Source: a virus. Taken from it: a stretch of 64,000 nucleotides of DNA. Each line of letters opens with the position of its first letter. Positions within the stretch are counted from its first letter, which is position 1. The notes beneath the pieces were generated by a model. It saw only the letters and a list, made by a program, of their open reading frames with translations, searched no databases and was not told the origin of the DNA. Both the position numbers and the translations under genes were made by a program. The stretch lies in IMG/VR virus record IMGVR_UViG_3300027749_000111, positions 2,373 through 66,372 of that record; one strand, 5' to 3'. Positions 7,773-51,131 of the stretch are shown piece after piece.

Positions 7773-7801
7773 CTAAAAGTGTTCGTAGAACGCTCTAGTA
7801 A

Positions 7802-8710
7802 ATGATGAAACGCACAGCTGATACACCAAATGGAAATCATGGGATGGATGCCGACCTTGATACCATTGAAGAAGAAAACACGTTTGGCATACCAGGAACT
7901 AGTCGCATACCATCAAAACAATTGTTAGCTAGTATACGTAGACTTGCTGACATGGGCAATCAAGATGAAAACGCAACAGAAATAACAGCACCAACTGGAA
8001 CTGGTAAGATCGATTTAAAAAAAGAACCACCTGCTGTTAAAAATGAAGGGCTTGCTAGTGTTAGTCCAGGTTCATTATCAACACTGATTGGAGCAAGTAA
8101 AATGAGTTTACAACAAAGAATAGCATATATAATGGAAAATGGTCAACCATTTTGCAATCACTGCGAAAGCCACTACTTTCCTAAGTCTTTGGGCATTACT
8201 GCATGTACCGATTGTGGTTGCAAACGCCCTAATGTTGATCATGGCAGTCAAGATGGTAACTTTTCTCGTGTAGAAGGCGGAACAGTTGCTGATGAAGTTG
8301 GTGGAAAAGAAATTATCAAAGTGCAATCTGTTAGATTGGCAAGCACCGATGACTATGTTAAATTGTTTAACAGCAAGATCGCTACTGACAGCGATAACTA
8401 CAATCGTGGCTACAATGATGCTATGAATGGTCAGGAACTGGATGAGGACCTTGCTCTGCTCAGTGATGACTATTACAATGGCTATGAACAATATAAGTTT
8501 TTTAATAAAACGCCACAACAGAGTGTAAGACAAAATTTGTACGATATCAAGCCAAATAGCAATGGTATTCCACGCAGTTATGATCATCACCTAACTCCTG
8601 GTGAATTTGATCGTGGACCCATTCAATTGACAGATGGTCAAGGACGGGCTGCTGTAGCAAACAAATTGCCATTTCCAATTGACGTAATAGAAAAGTTCTT
8701 TGAGGTATAA
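7802..8710 (+). CDS. Hypothetical protein with Zn ribbon and YxxGY repeats
   Basis: CNHC...CTDC; YNRGY and YYNGY; several [K/R]xA motifs. Confidence 0.75.
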   Translation: MMKRTADTPNGNHGMDADLDTIEEENTFGIPGTSRIPSKQLLASIRRLADMGNQDENATEITAPTGTGKIDLKKEPPAVKNEGLASVSPGSLSTLIGASKMSLQQRIAYIMENGQPFCNHCESHYFPKSLGITACTDCGCKRPNVDHGSQDGNFSRVEGGTVADEVGGKEIIKVQSVRLASTDDYVKLFNSKIATDSDNYNRGYNDAMNGQELDEDLALLSDDYYNGYEQYKFFNKTPQQSVRQNLYDIKPNSNGIPRSYDHHLTPGEFDRGPIQLTDGQGRAAVANKLPFPIDVIEKFFEV

Positions 8711-12167: not shown

Positions 12168-13169
12168 ATGGACGCTGCAAAAAACACTGGTCGCAAGAAC
12201 TTTAAATGTATCTTTAATGACTACATTACAAAGGACAACCGTGATGCTGTTATTCAGTCTATCATATCTCAATTTCAAGGGTACTTTGCCGATCCAGAAG
12301 TGACTGTTGTTGACAATGGGTTTATTCTGTCACTAACTACCACTGATGAGCTCAACCCAACATCCATACGTGACAAGATCCTTTGGAACCGTTTTATTGA
12401 ACGCGTAACCACTCAAGACAGCATCCGTAAGATTCAAATTCTTCGTTTACCACAGTCGTCCAATGGTTCAGTTGGTGGATTTGGTCCGCATGGAAGCGAT
12501 AGCGGTGTTGATGAAATTATGATTTTAGATGGCAAGCCAATTCCTCATATGGAATATAAAATAGACAATGCTGACCGTCCTGATGGACCCGCATTCATTG
12601 CCAGTGTAAAGTACGCTGACCCCACAAGCAATTTACTTCCTGTTATCTTTGGTCCTGGTGCAGAGTCTGGCAAGCCAGTTGACGAAGATCTTAAAAGTGA
12701 TATTACTGAAGTGGACAATGGTCCAAAGCGTGTTCTTGGCTTTCGAGTAATTGCTTTTGATAGTGATACTGGTGGATCTTTTACCATGACAAAAGGCAAT
12801 CAATATGGTGTTAGTATAGATGACACTCATGGATTAACAAGCACTAACGAAAGTCTTGCCATGTTGCCAAGGGGTACTTTTTTCAATACAGACATTGAAA
12901 ATGAACGGGGTTCTAGAACTGGTGTAGAAATAATGAAACGTAAAGATGAAACAACATCTGCACCATTGATTTTTGATGCTAGCAAAACTCTTACTAAAGA
13001 AGAAGAAGCTGAGACTGCTAGAAGTGCTGTTGAAATATCGCAATCAAAGGGTGGTGGCCAATCTGTGCCGGATGGTGGGCAAATAGAAGGTTGGTATGCT
13101 AGCAGTTTCTTTGGTCTGAATGAAACATACGATTATGTAGGGGATATAGACGATGATTACTTCATATAA
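12168..13169 (+). CDS. Hypothetical protein
   Basis: 333 aa; internal VKYAD and FRVIA motifs. Confidence 0.7.
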   Translation: MDAAKNTGRKNFKCIFNDYITKDNRDAVIQSIISQFQGYFADPEVTVVDNGFILSLTTTDELNPTSIRDKILWNRFIERVTTQDSIRKIQILRLPQSSNGSVGGFGPHGSDSGVDEIMILDGKPIPHMEYKIDNADRPDGPAFIASVKYADPTSNLLPVIFGPGAESGKPVDEDLKSDITEVDNGPKRVLGFRVIAFDSDTGGSFTMTKGNQYGVSIDDTHGLTSTNESLAMLPRGTFFNTDIENERGSRTGVEIMKRKDETTSAPLIFDASKTLTKEEEAETARSAVEISQSKGGGQSVPDGGQIEGWYASSFFGLNETYDYVGDIDDDYFI

Positions 13170-13701
13170 AGTATGCCCAGCTGGCAAAGAGGCTGATACC
13201 TACGCTCCTGGTGATTTTATTCTTGTATCAACAAAGGGTATTCTATCTAATATTATTAGGTTTGGTCAATTTATTAGATATCATGGTAAAATGAAAGCAT
13301 ACAGTCACTGGAACCATGCTGCAATGATTATTGATAAAGATGGTACAATTGTAGAAGCAGTTGGTCGTGGTGTTGTAACCAGTAATATCAATGAGTACAA
13401 GCACGTAGAATATTATTATGTCAGCAGCAAATTAAATGCTCAAAGTCGTAACCAAGCAGTTGCTGCCTGCAAGAGTTTTTTAAAAGATAAGTATGGATTT
13501 TTAACCATTGCCAGTATTACTTTAGAATTACTAACTGGTATTAAATTACAATTTACCAATAGCAATACCATGATTTGTAGTGCTGTAGTAGGGCAATCTC
13601 TTTGGGCAGGTGGTGTAATCTTTGATACTAACCCATACCAGATGATGCCAGCTGATCTTGCTGCTGCGTTCAAAATTGAATGTTTAGAAAGTATTGCATA
13701 A
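13153..13701 (+). CDS. Permuted papain-like NlpC/P60 enzyme (YiiX/YebB, C92-like)
   Basis: PGDFILV...WNHAAM...IVEA...ICSAVV, with His before Cys as in permuted NlpC/P60. Confidence 0.8.
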   Translation: MITSYKVCPAGKEADTYAPGDFILVSTKGILSNIIRFGQFIRYHGKMKAYSHWNHAAMIIDKDGTIVEAVGRGVVTSNINEYKHVEYYYVSSKLNAQSRNQAVAACKSFLKDKYGFLTIASITLELLTGIKLQFTNSNTMICSAVVGQSLWAGGVIFDTNPYQMMPADLAAAFKIECLESIA

Positions 13702-13714
13702 ATTCACTAAAGAC

Positions 13715-13743
13715 TTGACTTTCTGTTATATTACGTATAATGT
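13715..13743 (+). promoter_or_regulatory. SigA-like promoter, probably driving a leaderless mRNA
   Basis: TTGACT-N17-TAATGT (TATAAT overlaps). ATG lies 7 nt after the -10 element, with no SD. Confidence 0.55.
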
Positions 13744-13749
13744 AAGTTT

Positions 13750-13917
13750 ATGAAGAAAACAACCATTACCATCAGTTATGATGCCCGTGATATCCAGAGC
13801 GATGAGCTCGCAAGCAGTGAGATCAATGAAACAATTGCTGGTCTTTTAAATAGTTTGCGTACTCAAGTCAATGGTGTCCAGGTAACCGTAAAATTCCAGA
13901 ATACAAAGGATAATTAA
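13750..13917 (+). CDS. Small hypothetical protein (55 aa)
   Basis: Manual ORF MKKTTITISYDARDIQSDELAS...KDN. Confidence 0.6.
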   Translation: MKKTTITISYDARDIQSDELASSEINETIAGLLNSLRTQVNGVQVTVKFQNTKDN

Positions 13918-13919
13918 TC

Positions 13920-14321
13920 ATGTCATTAAACATTAACAAGCTATTTGAAACTACTGCTGTACGCAATGTAGTTCGTAGTGCCGTTGCTAGCGCTGTAGGA
14001 GCTGCTGTTGCATACGGTACTACCAAGTGGGCTAGTCTACAAACAAGCAACATTGCTTACTTGGCACCCACGTTTTCTACCGCATACTTTGCATTGGTTC
14101 ACTTGCTTGAGAAGAAGTACCCTAAGCTTGGTTGGCTACTTGTCCTTCTGCCAAAGTCAACACCAATCAACTTTGCTCCAAAGGTAGTTCCTGTTGCGCC
14201 AGTTGTACCTACACCAGCTCCTGCTGCTAAGCCCATTGTTAAAACTGATGCGCCCAAGGCTCCTGTTGCTAAGAAGGCTCCCGCTGCTAAGAAGGCTGCT
14301 CCAAAGAAGACTGGTAAGTAG
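13920..14321 (+). CDS. Holin-like membrane protein with Pro/Lys/Ala-rich tail
   Basis: Two hydrophobic helices, HLLEKKYPKLGWLL, then histone-like KKAPAAKK repeats. Confidence 0.6.
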   Translation: MSLNINKLFETTAVRNVVRSAVASAVGAAVAYGTTKWASLQTSNIAYLAPTFSTAYFALVHLLEKKYPKLGWLLVLLPKSTPINFAPKVVPVAPVVPTPAPAAKPIVKTDAPKAPVAKKAPAAKKAAPKKTGK

Positions 14322-14330
14322 CCAAGGTCT

Positions 14331-14402
14331 TGCTCGGTAACTCAGAGGCAGAGTACTCGCCTGTTAAGCGAAGTGTCGTAGGTTCGATCCCTACCCGAGC
14401 AG
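14331..14402 (+). tRNA. tRNA-Asn(GUU)
   Basis: Acceptor TGCTCGG/CCGAGCA; anticodon arm TCGC-CTGTTAA-GCGA; T arm GTAGG-TTCGATC-CCTAC; CCA not encoded. Confidence 0.9.
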
Positions 14403-14406
14403 CTAA

Positions 14407-14442
14407 TGGGAGATCGTCCAATGGCAGGACAACAGACTTTGA
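14407..14442 (+). pseudogene. 5' half (positions 1-37) of a disrupted tRNA-Gln(UUG)
   Basis: TGGGAGA-TC-GTCC-AATGGCA-GGAC-A-ACAGA-CT-TTG-A, then an abrupt break. Confidence 0.85.
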
Positions 14443-14515
14443 TGAGGGGTAGTTCAATTGGCAGAACGGCGGACTTTGAATCCGTAGGTTGAAGGTTCGA
14501 GTCCTTCCTCCTCAG
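14443..14515 (+). tRNA. tRNA-Gln(UUG), intact replacement copy
   Basis: Acceptor TGAGGGG/CTCCTCA; D arm GTTC/GAAC; anticodon GCGGA-CTTTGAA-TCCGT; T arm GAAGG-TTCGAGT-CCTTC. Confidence 0.92.
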
Positions 14516-14590
14516 CAAATTGTAAAAGATGTAAAATAGTCGTTGGAATAATATAGTCTTTGAATACAATAAAAAATTCAAAGGATCAAT

Positions 14591-14950
14591 ATGTCTAAAC
14601 AAGCATGGCGTGATAACAATAAAGATGCTGTTAATGAATACCAGCGTAAATTTTATGCTGAAAACAAAGAAAAACAACTTAAAAAAATATATGCGAATAG
14701 AGCTAAGCGTCGAGCAAGACTAAAAGAAACTATCAATAACATCAAGAATACACCATGTAAAGATTGTGGCAATATTTATCACCCTGAAGCAATGGATTTT
14801 GATCACCTTGGTAATAAAGAATTCAATATTGCAAATGCTATGAGAGATGTTAAGAATCTTGATAGAGTATTAAAAGAAGTAGAGAAATGTGATATTGTAT
14901 GTTCCAACTGTCATAGGGTTAGAACAGCAAAAAGAGCTGGTAGATCCTAG
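14591..14950 (+). CDS. HNH endonuclease
   Basis: CKDC...MDFDH...KCDIVCSNCHRVRT, preceded by a basic helical N-terminus; SD AAGGA. Confidence 0.9.
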   Translation: MSKQAWRDNNKDAVNEYQRKFYAENKEKQLKKIYANRAKRRARLKETINNIKNTPCKDCGNIYHPEAMDFDHLGNKEFNIANAMRDVKNLDRVLKEVEKCDIVCSNCHRVRTAKRAGRS

Positions 14951-14961
14951 TCTCCCAGCCA
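14944..14961 (+). pseudogene. 3' remnant of the disrupted tRNA-Gln (T-stem strand, acceptor strand, G, CCA)
   Basis: ATCCTAG-TCTCCCA-G-CCA; TCTCCCA is the perfect complement of TGGGAGA at 14407. Confidence 0.8.
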
Positions 14962-14962
14962 A

Positions 14963-15040
14963 CCGTCAGTAGCCAAGCTGGTGAAGGCCCTGAGCTTATA
15001 TCTCAGAGATACGTAGGTTCGAACCCTACCTGACGGACCA
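14963..15040 (+). tRNA. tRNA-Ile(UAU)
   Basis: Acceptor CCGTCAG/CTGACGG plus A-CCA; anticodon arm CTGAG-CTTATAT-CTCAG; T arm GTAGG-TTCGAAC-CCTAC. Confidence 0.88.
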
Positions 15041-15125
15041 TTTAAAATACACTGCAACTCACCTAGTAGATATAGGATCTTTCCTATATTGTCCAGCGCC
15101 CACAAGGCAGAATACGGAGAACACT

Positions 15126-15905
15126 ATGGCATCGATGTTTGACTACGATGATTCAGTTAACTTAGCTTACAATGCTAAGATTGCAGGCAAAAATTTGATT
15201 GCAGCAAAGCATGAGCTGCTTAATAAAACAGGTGAATTTTTGTTTCTTGCTCACAGTGACCGTGAGTTTGCTCTGCGCTGTCAAATGATTGAGCAGGACA
15301 TTGAGGGTGTGGCTTACCGCCGATTGGCCAGCCTCAGCGACAGCAAGGCCAAGTTGGTCCGTGCTGCCTTTGATGAGTGGCAGCTCCGTCACGCTTCTTG
15401 TGGTATGTGCAAGACAGCCAGCGACAGAATATCCCCTGAATGTAATGTCCCTGGTTGCAATAAATCTTCATTTGATGGCTATGTTTGCCCTACACATGGT
15501 GGTAAACCTCCAACTGATGAGCAACTCGCCGCTACAAGAAAAGTAATGCGAGACCGGGGCCTCCTTGGGGATAGCAAGACTACAATGGCTTCCAAGACAG
15601 CTGCTGGTCCTAAAGTGGTTGAAGTGCCTGCTCCTAATCGCCCAGTGGTTGAAGTGCCTGCTCCTAATCGCCCAGTGGTTGAAGTGCCTGCTCCTAATCG
15701 CCCAGTAGTTCAAGTACAACCTGTTAATCGCCAAGTGGTTGAAGTGCCTGGTCGCACACAAAAATTAGTTCCTGTTGTTCGGGGACAAAGCACACAAGTT
15801 CCTTCTCTAGACATGCACCATGATGCTTGTTCTCCTACCGGATGCCACCCTGAATGCCGCATAAAGCTCCCACCAACGGGTGTTCAAAGTCAGATTCATC
15901 TTTAA
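15126..15905 (+). CDS. Hypothetical protein, putative head-associated, with 10-aa repeats
   Basis: SD GGAG; KIAG, RLAS, KTAS and KTAA motifs; PVVEVPAPNR repeats. Confidence 0.8.
   Translation: MASMFDYDDSVNLAYNAKIAGKNLIAAKHELLNKTGEFLFLAHSDREFALRCQMIEQDIEGVAYRRLASLSDSKAKLVRAAFDEWQLRHASCGMCKTASDRISPECNVPGCNKSSFDGYVCPTHGGKPPTDEQLAATRKVMRDRGLLGDSKTTMASKTAAGPKVVEVPAPNRPVVEVPAPNRPVVEVPAPNRPVVQVQPVNRQVVEVPGRTQKLVPVVRGQSTQVPSLDMHHDACSPTGCHPECRIKLPPTGVQSQIHL
15615..15750 (+). repeat. 30-bp coding tandem repeat (3 exact, 1 degenerate, 1 partial)
   Basis: Unit GTGGTTGAAGTGCCTGCTCCTAATCGCCCA. Confidence 0.9.
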
Positions 15906-48151: not shown

Positions 48152-48564
48152 ATCCCTACATAGTTGGCAAAACTGAAATTGCGTTTGCACGCGGAATATT
48201 AAGCCAACTTGATCTTAATTCAGTACAAGAACAAATGCTTCTTGCAGTTATGTATCGCAAACAAAAGAAAGAAATTGAAGCTGAAGAATCTGCTTTTGAA
48301 CGCGATCTTTTTATTAACAATCCTTCTATGTATCAAGAATACTTAAAACAAAAAGAAGAAGATGTCTCCAGTGGCAACAATGGCATAACGTGGGTTGCTC
48401 CTGAAAGCGTTGAAGAAGCTCGTGAGCTTATGAACATCTTTGCTGATGTTGAAAAACAATTAAACCAAGAGAAGAACGGTTATCAAAATGAAGAAAGCTC
48501 AGAACAATCAATGAGTTTTATAAATTTGTTTAACGGTATCAATATCGATGAGATTGGTGAATAA
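48139..48564 (+). CDS. Tail assembly chaperone frameshift extension
   Basis: -1 frame reads RWEVDPYIVGKTEIAFARG...QEQMLLAV... and is continuous with track ORF 48235-48564. Confidence 0.75.
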   Translation, partial: RWEVDPYIVGKTEIAFARGILSQLDLNSVQEQMLLAVMYRKQKKEIEAEESAFERDLFINNPSMYQEYLKQKEEDVSSGNNGITWVAPESVEEARELMNIFADVEKQLNQEKNGYQNEESSEQSMSFINLFNGINIDEIGE

Positions 48565-48566
48565 CA

Positions 48567-51131
48567 ATGGCAGAGGTACCATTTAATATTACAGGTGATA
48601 ATAGCAACTTTGAAAGTTCACTTAACAATAGTGCACGCATTGTAAAAGAAATGGTTCAAGACTTTCAAACTCTTAATGATGCTATGGATAGCACCGTTAC
48701 TAGAGCAAGCAAAATAAAAACATTCTTTGAAGACAATGTTGAGCTTGTTGGAGACATGAAAAAAATGCTTGAACTCATTGCAAGTATCAATGAAAGCAAC
48801 CAAGCTGCTCTAACAAACAACCTGCAAGCCATTCGTGAAATGCTTACCAGCGTTAGCAGGATGGGTGGAAACATTCAAGATGCTGCAAGATTAATTAATA
48901 CAGCAAGCATTGCTGGTGGAGGCGGCTTTGGCGGTGGCGGTGGAAATGCTGCAGATCAAATTCAACAATATCAACAGCAGCTAGCTGCCAACCAACCAAA
49001 ACAATCTGCTCAACAAGAAGAAAAAGATTTTATTATTGGTGCAACTGACCGAATTGCTGCCAAAGCAGTTGCTGAAGGTGAAACTGCAAATAGGTTTAAA
49101 TCAATTTTTGGTGGTAAAAAAGAAATAGAAGACAAAGAAGAAAAAGAAAAGAGTAAGCTAGAAAAACTAGCACAAGAAGTGACTGAAAATAATATCCGTG
49201 CGTTTGGAGGCGCCCCAGGCGCCCCAGGCGGCAGGCGTAGAACGTCAGACGAAGACGACGAAGAACCAAGCTTACCGCCTGTAATTAGAGCGAGTAAACC
49301 CCCAGAAAAAACAGAAGAAAAAGCTAAACCCGCCCCAGTTGATGCATATTATGAAGCAATAATTAAAAAATTCCCAAATTTAGATGGCAAACTTGAACGA
49401 GAGACACCAACTGAAAATCCACGAATAGCAGCAAATTTTGCTAAAGACTCAATAAGTAGGTGGGGAAACGCAACACTCCTCAAGCCATTTGCTAGCTTTT
49501 TAAATAGAAAGATTCCAAGGCTATCAAGCGTTGCTACCGCTATTGACACAATGAAAGCTAAAGTAGCAGAAAACGAGTACATGGCAGACATGGGAGAAGG
49601 TGCTCCTATAGCTACAGAAGAAATCTGGAAAAAGCATCTAGAAGATCCAAATAATGACCTTACCAAGGCATACAGCGCAATGAATCGAGCTTTATCGAAA
49701 CCCTTTCAAAGACTTGCTAATTTTCGTAATACCCCTGCTGCTCAAGCATTTGCTGGCTATCAAGGAGCCACTCAATTGGCAGCTCTTGCCAGACAATACA
49801 CTGGCATTGGCCAACAGTATGGTGGCGCAATGGGCACTGTTGACTATGGACAATCTGCAGGCTTGGCCTTGCAAGCCAACACAAAGTCATTATTTGGTCT
49901 TAACCCATTTTATAGTACACAGAATGCTATGCAAGCCCAGATGCAAGGCATTGGAATTGGTTATCGCGGCGCTGGATTAAATCAATATCAAAGTATTGCC
50001 CAGAACATGCAAACCACTCTTGGCCTTAGTCAAGGGCAAATTGGTAGCATAATTGGTGCCACAACAGGTGCTGGTGTTTCGCAACAGGCCGCTGCAAATA
50101 CCATTTCCGCAGTTAGACAAGCTGGCAATGGATCTAGCTTTTACAATGCTAGCTATGCTACTCAAGTGGCTACCAGCAACATGGTAACTGGCGGTAGCAT
50201 TGGTCTGAGCAGCAGTGCTGCTGCATATCTCGGCACAACAGCCAGCGGTTTAGCCAAGGATGCAATTGCTGGTCGCGAGCAATTTACTGGCATTGAAGCT
50301 ATGAACAGCCCATTTGGCCTTAGCATTGTTGCTACTGCGCTTGGTGTTCAAATGACTGATTTGTATAGCATCACAGGCAAAATGGGTGGCAAGCAATACC
50401 TTAACCTGTACACTGGCCTTTTACTTGACAGGATTTCACAGACTGTAGGCATTGATTTTCGTACTATAAAAAGTATAGATCAACTTAAACAAAAGGCCTA
50501 TATCTTGATGCAAGTTCTACCAGGCTTTGGCATTACTCAAGTAACTGATCAACAGGGTGCTGTTGACTATGTATGGCTTTTGATTCAACAGTATAAAAAT
50601 AGTGGTGGCGATAGTAAACGCGCAGACACAATTAGAATCTTTCATGCAGGCGGCCCACAACACAATCCTACCCATAGCGGTAGTGGCGGACACAGTAGTG
50701 GCGGCCTCGTCCCCACTGGTCGGGCCGCAGTAATGAACAACTTTAGCGAAAGTGGTAGTGGCGGTAGCGGTAGTGGCGGACACAGTAGTGGCGGACACAA
50801 TGGTGGTAGCGGTAGTCCTGTTAGCGCTGGTGCCACTGGTCGGGCCGCAGTAATGAACAACTTTAGCGAAAGTGGTAGTGGCGGTAGCGGTAGTACTGTT
50901 AGCGCTGCAATACAAAATTTAAATTCTAGAATCTATAATGGTACTGGCCACACTGGCAGTGGAGGGTCTAGTAATAGCGGTGGTGGTGGTAACAATAGTA
51001 CAACCACTACAATAAGTTTTGCAAACGTCAACTCACACAGATTAGCACAGTTAGTCGGTCTGGCACTCACAACCAATACCAATGGGCAAACTCCGGTCAC
51101 TCATAACATTCCTAGAGGTGTTACTCCATGA
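48567..51131 (+). CDS. Tape measure protein
   Basis: 854 aa, helical and A/G/Q-rich, after the chaperone; Gly/Ser-rich C-terminal linker. Confidence 0.75.
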   Translation: MAEVPFNITGDNSNFESSLNNSARIVKEMVQDFQTLNDAMDSTVTRASKIKTFFEDNVELVGDMKKMLELIASINESNQAALTNNLQAIREMLTSVSRMGGNIQDAARLINTASIAGGGGFGGGGGNAADQIQQYQQQLAANQPKQSAQQEEKDFIIGATDRIAAKAVAEGETANRFKSIFGGKKEIEDKEEKEKSKLEKLAQEVTENNIRAFGGAPGAPGGRRRTSDEDDEEPSLPPVIRASKPPEKTEEKAKPAPVDAYYEAIIKKFPNLDGKLERETPTENPRIAANFAKDSISRWGNATLLKPFASFLNRKIPRLSSVATAIDTMKAKVAENEYMADMGEGAPIATEEIWKKHLEDPNNDLTKAYSAMNRALSKPFQRLANFRNTPAAQAFAGYQGATQLAALARQYTGIGQQYGGAMGTVDYGQSAGLALQANTKSLFGLNPFYSTQNAMQAQMQGIGIGYRGAGLNQYQSIAQNMQTTLGLSQGQIGSIIGATTGAGVSQQAAANTISAVRQAGNGSSFYNASYATQVATSNMVTGGSIGLSSSAAAYLGTTASGLAKDAIAGREQFTGIEAMNSPFGLSIVATALGVQMTDLYSITGKMGGKQYLNLYTGLLLDRISQTVGIDFRTIKSIDQLKQKAYILMQVLPGFGITQVTDQQGAVDYVWLLIQQYKNSGGDSKRADTIRIFHAGGPQHNPTHSGSGGHSSGGLVPTGRAAVMNNFSESGSGGSGSGGHSSGGHNGGSGSPVSAGATGRAAVMNNFSESGSGGSGSTVSAAIQNLNSRIYNGTGHTGSGGSSNSGGGGNNSTTTTISFANVNSHRLAQLVGLALTTNTNGQTPVTHNIPRGVTP
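50713..50894 (+). repeat. Exact 62-bp direct repeat, period 120 bp
   Basis: CCACTGGTCGGGCCGCAGTAATGAACAACTTTAGCGAAAGTGGTAGTGGCGGTAGCGGTAGT at 50713 and 50833. Confidence 0.9.

Follow-up and report, generated by a model that had tools for sequence, protein, structure and literature searches.

The window analysed here is a stretch of 64,000 nucleotides (positions 2,373 to 66,372) from the 66-kb viral record IMGVR_UViG_3300027749_000111, whose freshwater phage is predicted to be myovirus-like because it encodes a portal and a tail sheath. It contains a tRNA gene island in which a tRNA-Gln(UUG) gene is broken near its middle, and between the two ends lie a second, complete tRNA-Gln(UUG) gene and a gene for an HNH endonuclease. 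Loci other than the window are numbered below with L, and those of relatives of the phage were gathered through the peptidase-like gene at 13153-13701 (19 loci) and through the gene at 15126-15905 (44 loci); metagenomes whose contigs cover the locus are numbered with X. The features at the centre of the analysis are the following.

14407..14442, + strand: 5' piece of the old tRNA-Gln(UUG), 36 nt (sequence; L065; L068, L069 and L071; X10 contig)
14443..14945, + strand: inserted cassette, 503 bp (in the window, not in the empty allele; contig layout)
14443..14516, + strand: new, complete tRNA-Gln(UUG) (ARAGORN; 14443-14515 by Infernal)
14591..14950, + strand: HNH endonuclease gene, 119 aa (phrog_3106, phrog_2255, motif residues, PDB 4h9d)
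14946..14961, + strand: 3' piece of the old tRNA-Gln (sequence; 17-mer in intact relatives; X10 contig)

The 5' piece of the old gene runs from TGGGAGA to CTTTGA and comprises the acceptor strand, the D arm, the 5' anticodon strand and the loop to position 37. The 3' piece consists of the 3' strand of the T stem (CCTAG), the acceptor strand TCTCCCA, the discriminator G and CCA. The two acceptor strands pair 7/7 (TCTCCCA with TGGGAGA at 14407-14413), and a pairing of that quality between the short flanks was reached in 7 of 200 shuffles. A preliminary description, made from the letters alone, had the old gene breaking right after position 37 and TCTCCCA-G-CCA pairing with the old 5' end, and both parts were found where it had placed them.

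Counterparts of both pieces were found in relatives. The 5' piece and the intact tRNA-Gln of L065 share 97% identity over 30 nt (blastn-short E 2e-9), and the central 25-mer of the piece, GATCGTCC...ACAGA, has exact matches in four viral stretches, three of which (L068, L069, and L071) have a tRNA-Gln called by ARAGORN at that place. Of the 29 viral stretches that contain the final 17 nt of the 3' piece, 26 have, by eye, a whole TGGGAGA...TCTCCCAGCCA tRNA-Gln ending in them. The exact 24-mer of the old 5' end was present in none of the viral contigs, and an Rfam scan of 13800-15400 at E<=10 returned three tRNAs and chance-level matches only, leaving the 36-nt half undetected. Judged by these matches, the two pieces are the ends of one real tRNA-Gln gene that is now dead.

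The same gene type was encountered in another setting. In L080 and L092 (the same contig) and in L087, a TGGGAGA-type tRNA-Gln(CUG) is represented by its 3' part without the 5' part, and a whole copy stands elsewhere on the contig. This looks like ordinary integrase-type duplication of an attachment site at a host tRNA-Gln gene, and it suggests that the TGGGAGA type of tRNA-Gln is also bacterial.

The new tRNA-Gln adjoins the 5' piece without a spacer, as the preliminary description had noted in reporting a complete tRNA of the same anticodon directly after the break. Its acceptor strands are TGAGGGG and CCTCCTCA, its discriminator is G, and CCA is not encoded. It passes the Rfam model RF00005 with 70 bits against a gathering threshold of 29 (E 7.9e-15; full model, 1-71; Infernal), the anticodon is UUG, and ARAGORN calls it tRNA-Gln(ttg). 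Its 3' half resembles the tRNA-Gln of L055, and it differs from the old gene in the variable loop and the T stem.

The HNH gene, also placed correctly after the new tRNA in the preliminary description, is the sole + strand open reading frame (ORF) of at least 60 aa inside the 503 bp. Its product matches phrog_3106, “HNH endonuclease” (E 4.5e-27), and phrog_2255 (E 3.7e-23), and contains the motif CxxC...DH...N...CxxCH behind a basic N-terminal part. Residues C56, C59, H72, C100, C104, and H108 are invariant in an alignment of five homologues (A1), and the profile built from that alignment matches PDB 4h9d, “HNH endonuclease” (E 1.6e-5). Pfam offered no family at E<=0.01 (best, DUF5816, 16.3 bits against a cut-off of 26.9) and NCBIfam no meaningful one; the assignment is based on the PHROGs matches, the motif residues and the 4h9d match.

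The TAG stop codon of the HNH gene (14948-14950) lies inside CCTAG, which the preliminary description had assigned to the T-stem remnant of the old tRNA; the stop itself may instead come from the cassette. In L181 the HNH protein, 70% identical to that of the window, ends with the same ...RAGR-I-stop ahead of a different old remnant, and an X6 contig has other letters at 14945-14947, the TAG nonetheless being kept. The C terminus ...RTAxRxGR is common to the window, L181, and L114. Because L181 and the X6 variant retain TAG amid differing letters, the cassette probably has a stop of its own, and microhomology may explain the 5 nt (CCTAG) that overlap the old T stem.

Empty and filled alleles of the tRNA-Gln gene

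Parts of 14250-15150 were found in 24 freshwater or lake sequencing runs, and the contigs of four of these were compared with 13900-15400. In X10, a freshwater metagenome other than that of the window, a 636-nt contig of depth 4.5 joins 14442 to 14946, skipping the 503 bp and having in their place 22 letters (ATCTGTGAATCTAGGTTCGACC). Its flanks differ from the window by four letters over 14379-14442 and by one over 14946-15145. The 22 letters are identical to those of L068, L069, and L071 between the same two blocks, and they complete a canonical tRNA-Gln with position 38, the 3' strand of the anticodon stem, the variable loop, the 5' strand of the T stem and the T loop. It follows from this joint that the cassette is 14443-14945 and that it has replaced 22 bp. 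The X10 contig provides the empty allele without an HNH gene that the preliminary description had proposed looking for. Its estimate of the loss, about 20 nt comprising the 3' anticodon strand, the variable loop and the 5' T strand, was right as to those parts; the actual loss is 22 nt and includes the T loop.

The filled allele was recovered without a single difference in contigs of X1 (14413-14975) and X2 (14512-14975), so that with X10 there is a presence/absence polymorphism with sharp boundaries. On either side of the insert, the X1 contig reaches exactly 30 nt past the junction; these ends probably reflect a k=31 bubble formed by two co-occurring alleles that share their flanks, and they leave the contig one letter short of the rule for bridging. 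Further contigs of X1, X2, and X6 pass from 14442 into intact-type sequence (ATCTGTGAATCTAGGTTCGA...). The window is itself a metagenome assembly of a population with many co-occurring alleles, the kind of material in which the tRNA clusters of two strains could be joined into a chimera. The separately assembled contigs of X1, which spans both junctions, and of X2, which spans the right one, speak against such an artefact, with the caveat that X1 or X2 may be the window's own sample and that the X1 contig extends only 30 letters beyond each junction. Analogous layouts also occur in contigs of many other records, and we regard an assembly artefact as very improbable.

An insert right after the anticodon loop occupies a classic site of tRNA introns, and the 7/7 pairing of the acceptor halves is what a tRNA interrupted yet functional would display, as in the case of a group I intron with an endonuclease ORF. 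Splicing could not restore this tRNA, because the 22 nt, T loop included, are absent from the filled allele, and no intron or ribozyme family was found in 13800-15400 at E<=10. The other variant of this explanation is duplication of an attachment site by an integrase-type element; the 503-bp insert lacks an integrase, and the new tRNA is not repeated in the old pieces. An intron or an integrase-type element is therefore scarcely credible as an explanation. Rather, 14443-14945 is probably a free-standing HNH homing-endonuclease cassette with its own tRNA-Gln(UUG), which has replaced the central 22 bp of the resident tRNA-Gln(UUG).

Nested same-anticodon tRNAs at other loci

A search of viral contigs with profile A1 returned 259 relatives of the HNH protein, of which the best 80 were kept; a metagenome scan added 20 loci, giving 100 HNH loci in all. 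Among the best 80 of the 259 viral relatives, 23 have a tRNA within the 1.5-kb flanks of the HNH gene, and at 22 of the 100 loci a same-strand tRNA starts no more than 60 nt from the end of the HNH match. The full layout, in which an old 5' piece and an old 3' piece enclose an HNH gene together with a tRNA of the same anticodon, was found at no fewer than five loci besides the window (at least five, as the searches stand).

The closest case is L181, at the same locus of a related phage and in the same order as in the window. A 5' piece of the L044-type tRNA-Gln, broken in the anticodon loop, is followed by 7 nt, a new tRNA-Gln unlike that of the window, the HNH gene with its TAG, and the end of the old gene, consisting of the end of the T loop, the T strand and an acceptor strand TCCCAGA that pairs with TCTGGGA. 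In L114, a high-G+C phage whose HNH protein is 37% identical (E 2e-25), the order is an old 5' piece of tRNA-Gln(CUG), the HNH gene, a new tRNA-Gln(CUG) and then the 3' piece of the old gene, whose acceptor strand is complementary. L158, with an HNH protein 30% identical, has the same layout for tRNA-Trp. In L027 (= L023) a tRNA-Asn 5' piece, a gene for a 146-aa HNH protein (phrog_2255 E 5e-20; 29% identical to that of the window, E 1e-7), a new tRNA-Asn and an old 3' piece follow one another, and the 3' piece is 100% identical to L022 over positions 27-74.

In L042/L037 (= L009), a tRNA-Gln 5' piece, a 225-aa HNH gene, a different tRNA-Gln and a 3' piece make up the same arrangement with an HNH protein of another family (phrog_10822, E 2.3e-55). 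L034, L035, and L036 share this layout with the HNH ORF reduced to its last 33 nt, and the pieces of L034 are 100% identical to the uninterrupted tRNA-Gln of L055 over positions 1-25 and 45-72. In L037, the new tRNA-Asn of L027 is nested with a 26-nt spacer only and no ORF.

Nested and broken tRNA share their isotype in every HNH-bearing case, and they share the anticodon in all six (window, L181, L114, L158, L027, and L042). The breaks in the old tRNA-Gln and tRNA-Trp genes lie, by eye, in or next to the anticodon loop, after about position 37 in the window, 35 in L181, 38 in L158, and 42 in L114. The preliminary description had suggested looking for HNH homologues associated with split tRNAs of the same anticodon; L181, L114, L158, and L027 are such homologues, and L042/L037 adds an unrelated HNH family. 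Its central claim, that the element destroys its target tRNA and provides a replacement of the same anticodon instead of splicing or restoring the target, is largely supported by the empty allele and by this recurrence in other phages.

Several searches bear on how far the pattern extends. When all called tRNAs were compared by blastn-short with the HNH loci, L114 alone was flagged. Searches by nhmmer with home-made profiles of 5' halves and 3' halves recovered the known cases and added L158, at E values of 0.02 to 3.6, too weak for the lack of a match at other loci to count for much. Looking across cassettes for 7-bp complementarity of acceptor strands proved too noisy, 42 to 186 of 200 shuffles matching at most loci. 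Orphan pieces were sought in the islands by blastn-short of all called tRNAs, keeping matches outside called tRNAs. Every piece found adjoins a tRNA of the same isotype, except a tRNA-“Met”(CAU)-like piece in L034-36, which adjoins tRNA-Ile(UAU), and a 15-nt tRNA-Ile match in L065. In L024, L025, L053, and L065, what follows tRNA-Ile(UAU) is the 3' piece of a different tRNA-Ile.

Two candidates were set aside. The tRNA-Ile arrangement was considered as a further endonuclease case, since by eye a short ORF ahead of tRNA-Ile in L025 has an endonuclease-VII-like motif; it has no PHROG hit, and the arrangement was counted only as a tRNA with an old 3' piece. A supposed half tRNA in L123 was rejected as a fragment, being a whole tRNA-like gene with an odd T arm. 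The tRNA-“Met”(CAU)-like piece (L034 3863-3896, also in L035 and L036) follows tRNA-Ile(UAU) and shows 88% identity to part (positions 29-62) of the “tRNA-Met(CAU)” found in this slot in L050. Should the latter be a lysidine-type tRNA-Ile, the replacement would be one between two tRNAs reading the same AUA codon.

Recombination in a hot spot offers another account of these loci. Illegitimate or homeologous recombination between the diverged tRNA clusters of coinfecting phages could leave such scars, the HNH gene being a passenger or only stimulating breaks in general, and not a site-specific driver of the cassette. The relatives do commonly have mosaic tRNAs and orphan pieces with no nuclease gene nearby, among them the chimeric T arm of L019/L041, the tRNA-Ile with a 3' piece in L024/L025/L053/L065 and the nested tRNA-Asn of L037, and the junctions in the window are without homology. 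A scar of this kind would not readily pair an HNH gene with a nested tRNA of the same isotype at six loci, in unrelated phages and with two HNH families, nor leave 33 nt of a lost HNH ORF in L034 or give filled and empty alleles exact boundaries in common, and we think this explanation distinctly unlikely.

Homologues of the window's HNH protein also occur in cultured phages, namely Myrna, Streptomyces phages and Myxococcus phage Mx1. The Mx1 homologue (L201 901-1224; record 48294-48617) is 45% identical and unannotated, and its end overlaps the annotated tRNA-Lys; Mx1 could be a laboratory system for this HNH family. In L093/L098, an HNH gene whose product is 29% identical is flanked on both sides by an intact tRNA-Gln(UUG) gene, of which the first belongs to the TGGGAGA type. 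The same unrelated phage has, at L093 2862-3020, a tRNA called by ARAGORN with a CUA anticodon (“Pyl”) and an adjoining tRNA with the four-base anticodon CUAG, and these may be suppressor tRNAs.

The tRNA island around the cassette

The island between the genes at 13153-13701 and 15126-15905 is hypervariable among the relatives. Around and within the cassette, the remaining features in the window are the following.

14331..14403, + strand: tRNA-Asn(GUU), upstream neighbour (ARAGORN; Infernal, 59.9 bits)
14543..14570, + strand: promoter-like site TTGGAA, 16 nt, TACAAT, 5' of the HNH gene (consensus scan, 9/12 matches; weak)
14557..14584, + strand: 9-bp hairpin with its 3' arm over the AAGGA ribosome-binding site of the HNH gene (folding)
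14963..15040, + strand: tRNA-Ile(UAU), downstream neighbour (ARAGORN; Infernal, 60.5 bits)

Three nucleotides separate tRNA-Asn from the old tRNA-Gln, and the same spacing of Asn, 3 nt and Gln, with an intact tRNA-Gln, is found in L068, L069, and L071. The tRNA-Ile(UAU) gene is common to the filled and empty alleles, as the X10 contig covers 14946-15145 with one other letter. Seven promoter-like sites occur in the scanned region against 3.2 +/- 2.0 in shuffles, and a scan for terminator-like sites in 13700-15300 found none. The hairpin at the ribosome-binding site is not significant (94-nt stretch, -11.1 kcal/mol, z -0.86; 38 of 200 shuffles as stable); by eye, L181 has a comparable TTTGA...TCAAAGGA arrangement. 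A DNA search of GenBank phages returned short tRNA-level matches only and no close relative.

In X6 and X10, contigs have 99 other letters in place of 14321-14378, a 58-nt segment that includes the end of the ORF at 13920-14321 and the first 48 nt of tRNA-Asn. The 5' part of tRNA-Asn is therefore polymorphic in the population as well, and the region is a mosaic. Farther along, the gene at 15126-15905, directly 3' of the island, contains three to four tandem copies of a VEVPAPNRPV-like decapeptide, and its N terminus, MASMFDYDD..., which is conserved across 44 viral loci, delimits the variable island on the right. Accessory genes stand between the tRNAs in L029 (1088-3772), L039 (945-3515), L043 (1731-3630), L049 (1061-3774), and L038 (521-3502), where methyltransferase, endonuclease V-like, kinase, nucleotide-sugar epimerase-like and heptose kinase/adenylyltransferase-like genes were recognized. 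By gene content, the island is a general insertion hot spot. Between tRNA-Asn and tRNA-Ile, L022 (7207-7302) and L023 (about 7775-7865) share a conserved element of about 90 nt (TTTAGGAAGGATGCCC...CTCCTTCC) that folds into a long stem (-30 kcal/mol, z -1.85; 8 of 200 shuffles as stable), for which Rfam has no family at E<=1.

A possible home-and-rescue cycle in phage tRNA genes

The model that we favor begins with coinfection, in which the HNH enzyme would nick or cut the uninterrupted tRNA-Gln gene of a phage that lacks the cassette, at some point between anticodon loop and T arm. Repair of the break would use the genome with the cassette as template and the two halves of the tRNA with the adjoining DNA as homology arms, and the cassette would be copied in. 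The filled allele, without the 22 bp, would escape recutting, and the phage would suffer no loss, the cassette supplying a diverged tRNA-Gln with the same anticodon. The first insertion would have been an illegitimate capture at a break, with later spread by ordinary homologous repair. Breakage by the HNH enzyme, its cutting site, the escape of the new tRNA gene from cutting and spread by homologous repair are steps that we infer. The lack of the 22 bp in the filled allele would fit immunity, break points that cluster near the anticodon loop are an indirect hint that the HNH enzyme may cut near the insertion site, and the co-occurrence of both allele types in X1 and X2 is a precondition for gene conversion only.

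The data fit the life cycle of a homing endonuclease gene, with uninterrupted, invaded and decayed alleles. The uninterrupted stage is represented by X10 and L055 and, for tRNA-Asn, by L022 and L019; the invaded stage, with an intact nuclease gene, by the window, L181, L114, L158, L027, and L042; and the decayed stage, in which the cargo tRNA is kept and the nuclease lost, by L034-36 and, for tRNA-Asn, by L037. The same-anticodon rule is best explained by selection, because a cassette that kills a needed tRNA survives only with a substitute. Whether these cassettes belong to a widespread class of natural “home-and-rescue” drives in phages, with HNH enzymes homing into tRNA genes and carrying an uncuttable, diverged tRNA of the same anticodon, is in our judgment evenly balanced.

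A number of observations weigh against the homing model. The empty allele is represented by one contig of low depth (4.5), the upstream part of which differs from the window over 14321-14378. The junctions at 14442/14946 have zero homology in the contig layout, from which it follows that the first insertion must have been an illegitimate event. Eleven nucleotides around the anticodon (GACTTTGAATC) are common to the new and old tRNA-Gln genes, and immunity must therefore rest on flanking bases. L055 is an imperfect empty counterpart of L042, as the anticodon-stem letters of the L042 5' piece differ; eight letters past the D arm in L042 (GTCTCACT) match another type of tRNA-Gln, the one nested in L181, and we read them as belonging to the cassette. 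There are nested tRNAs without an endonuclease gene (L034-36 and, for tRNA-Asn, L037), which we read as decay and which could mean that no nuclease is needed in cis.

The distribution of the HNH family adds to these points. Among the best 80 of its 259 viral relatives, 57 are not near a tRNA, and the homologues found first (L002-L004) have none within 3 kb. Most tRNA-adjacent relatives lack flanking pieces in the screens used, which are insensitive. In Mx1 the HNH gene stands between an intact tRNA-Gln and tRNA-Lys with no flanking pieces by eye, and in TunaTartare it stands between two tRNA-Arg genes, again with none according to the annotation table only.

The benefit may instead lie with the cargo. 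A new tRNA allele could be selected for because it escapes a tRNA-cleaving defense of the host or suits codon use, the HNH gene being its vehicle and the element mutualistic. The tRNA-Gln alleles are very diverse (14 distinct sequences in the loci compared, differing in anticodon stem and loop), accessory genes, among them a methyltransferase and a kinase, lie in the hypervariable island as well, and a 2026 paper reports SegB-linked tRNA genes acting against tRNA-targeting defenses (PMC13096335). Selection on the cargo would account for the carrying of a tRNA and not for the landing site, a gene with that same anticodon. Once inserted, the HNH gene decays (L034 and L037), as expected of a selfish element. 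We consider this explanation rather unlikely as the principal one, and it is compatible with the homing model.

Elements of other kinds combine entry into a gene with protection of its function. Integrase-type elements, which have a tyrosine integrase and duplicate their att site, integrate into tRNA genes and rebuild the 3' end of the same tRNA. They resemble the window's cassette in that a mobile element enters a tRNA gene and brings sequence that keeps a working tRNA; they differ in that the cassette lacks an integrase, leaves the old gene dead and supplies a whole tRNA gene separate from it. In engineered “home-and-rescue” or “cleave-and-rescue” drives, a nuclease hits a gene that is needed, and a recoded rescue copy that cannot be cut travels with the drive. 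The logic is that of the cassette, but these drives are synthetic, Cas9-based and used in animals, whereas the cassette is natural, HNH-based and found in a phage, and the parallel is conceptual only.

The intron and intein endonucleases, and genes that a free-standing endonuclease divides, such as the “fractured genes” with split inteins (PMC2677866), likewise combine an endonuclease inside a useful gene with a device that cancels the damage. There the device is RNA or protein splicing, whereas in the window a second gene copy compensates and the damage is unrepaired.

SegB of phage T4 is a free-standing homing endonuclease that belongs to the GIY-YIG family and is encoded in a tRNA gene cluster. 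According to the available part of its description, it cuts the tRNA genes of related phages that lack it, with a preferred site in tRNA-Asn of T2L and a recognition sequence that includes a T-loop motif, and in mixed infection its own tRNA region is preferentially inherited (PMC2330249). SegB and the cassette are alike as free-standing endonuclease genes inside phage tRNA clusters; segB lies between tRNA genes and encodes a GIY-YIG enzyme, not an HNH enzyme, and that part of the description mentions neither halves of a destroyed tRNA nor a nested replacement with the same anticodon. Homologues of segB co-localize with tRNAs, as a later account reports (PMC13096335). Among the coding genes in tRNA arrays of mycobacterial plasmids and mycobacteriophages, those for HNH enzymes are the most widespread, and they have been “implicated in tRNA repertoire diversity”; the available parts of those reports describe adjacency of HNH genes and tRNAs, and neither nesting inside a broken same-anticodon tRNA nor filled and empty alleles (PMC5966550, PMC6409571).

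In the literature covered, which did not extend to supplements or to the possibly relevant Pope et al. 2014, we found no description of an endonuclease gene and a same-anticodon tRNA nested in a broken tRNA. The nested layout with a same-anticodon replacement and the empty and filled alleles were not found in that literature; the anatomy and the polymorphism are well supported, and the enzymology we infer.

Homing endonuclease genes inside useful genes avoid harm mainly by splicing, as introns and inteins do, or by settling between genes. If the model is right, carrying a substitute for the gene that is destroyed would add another solution, following the logic of engineered rescue gene drives, and small HNH enzymes may recognize specific tRNA genes. 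The model would also provide a mechanism for the tRNA pseudogene pieces in phage tRNA arrays and for rapid exchange of tRNA alleles between coinfecting phages, and it would account for the known, unexplained link between HNH genes and tRNA arrays. If such drives are real, repeated rounds of invasion, fixation and decay would leave orphan tRNA halves and a fast turnover of tRNA alleles in the islands, and phages would gain new tRNA variants that may escape the tRNA-cleaving defenses of their hosts.

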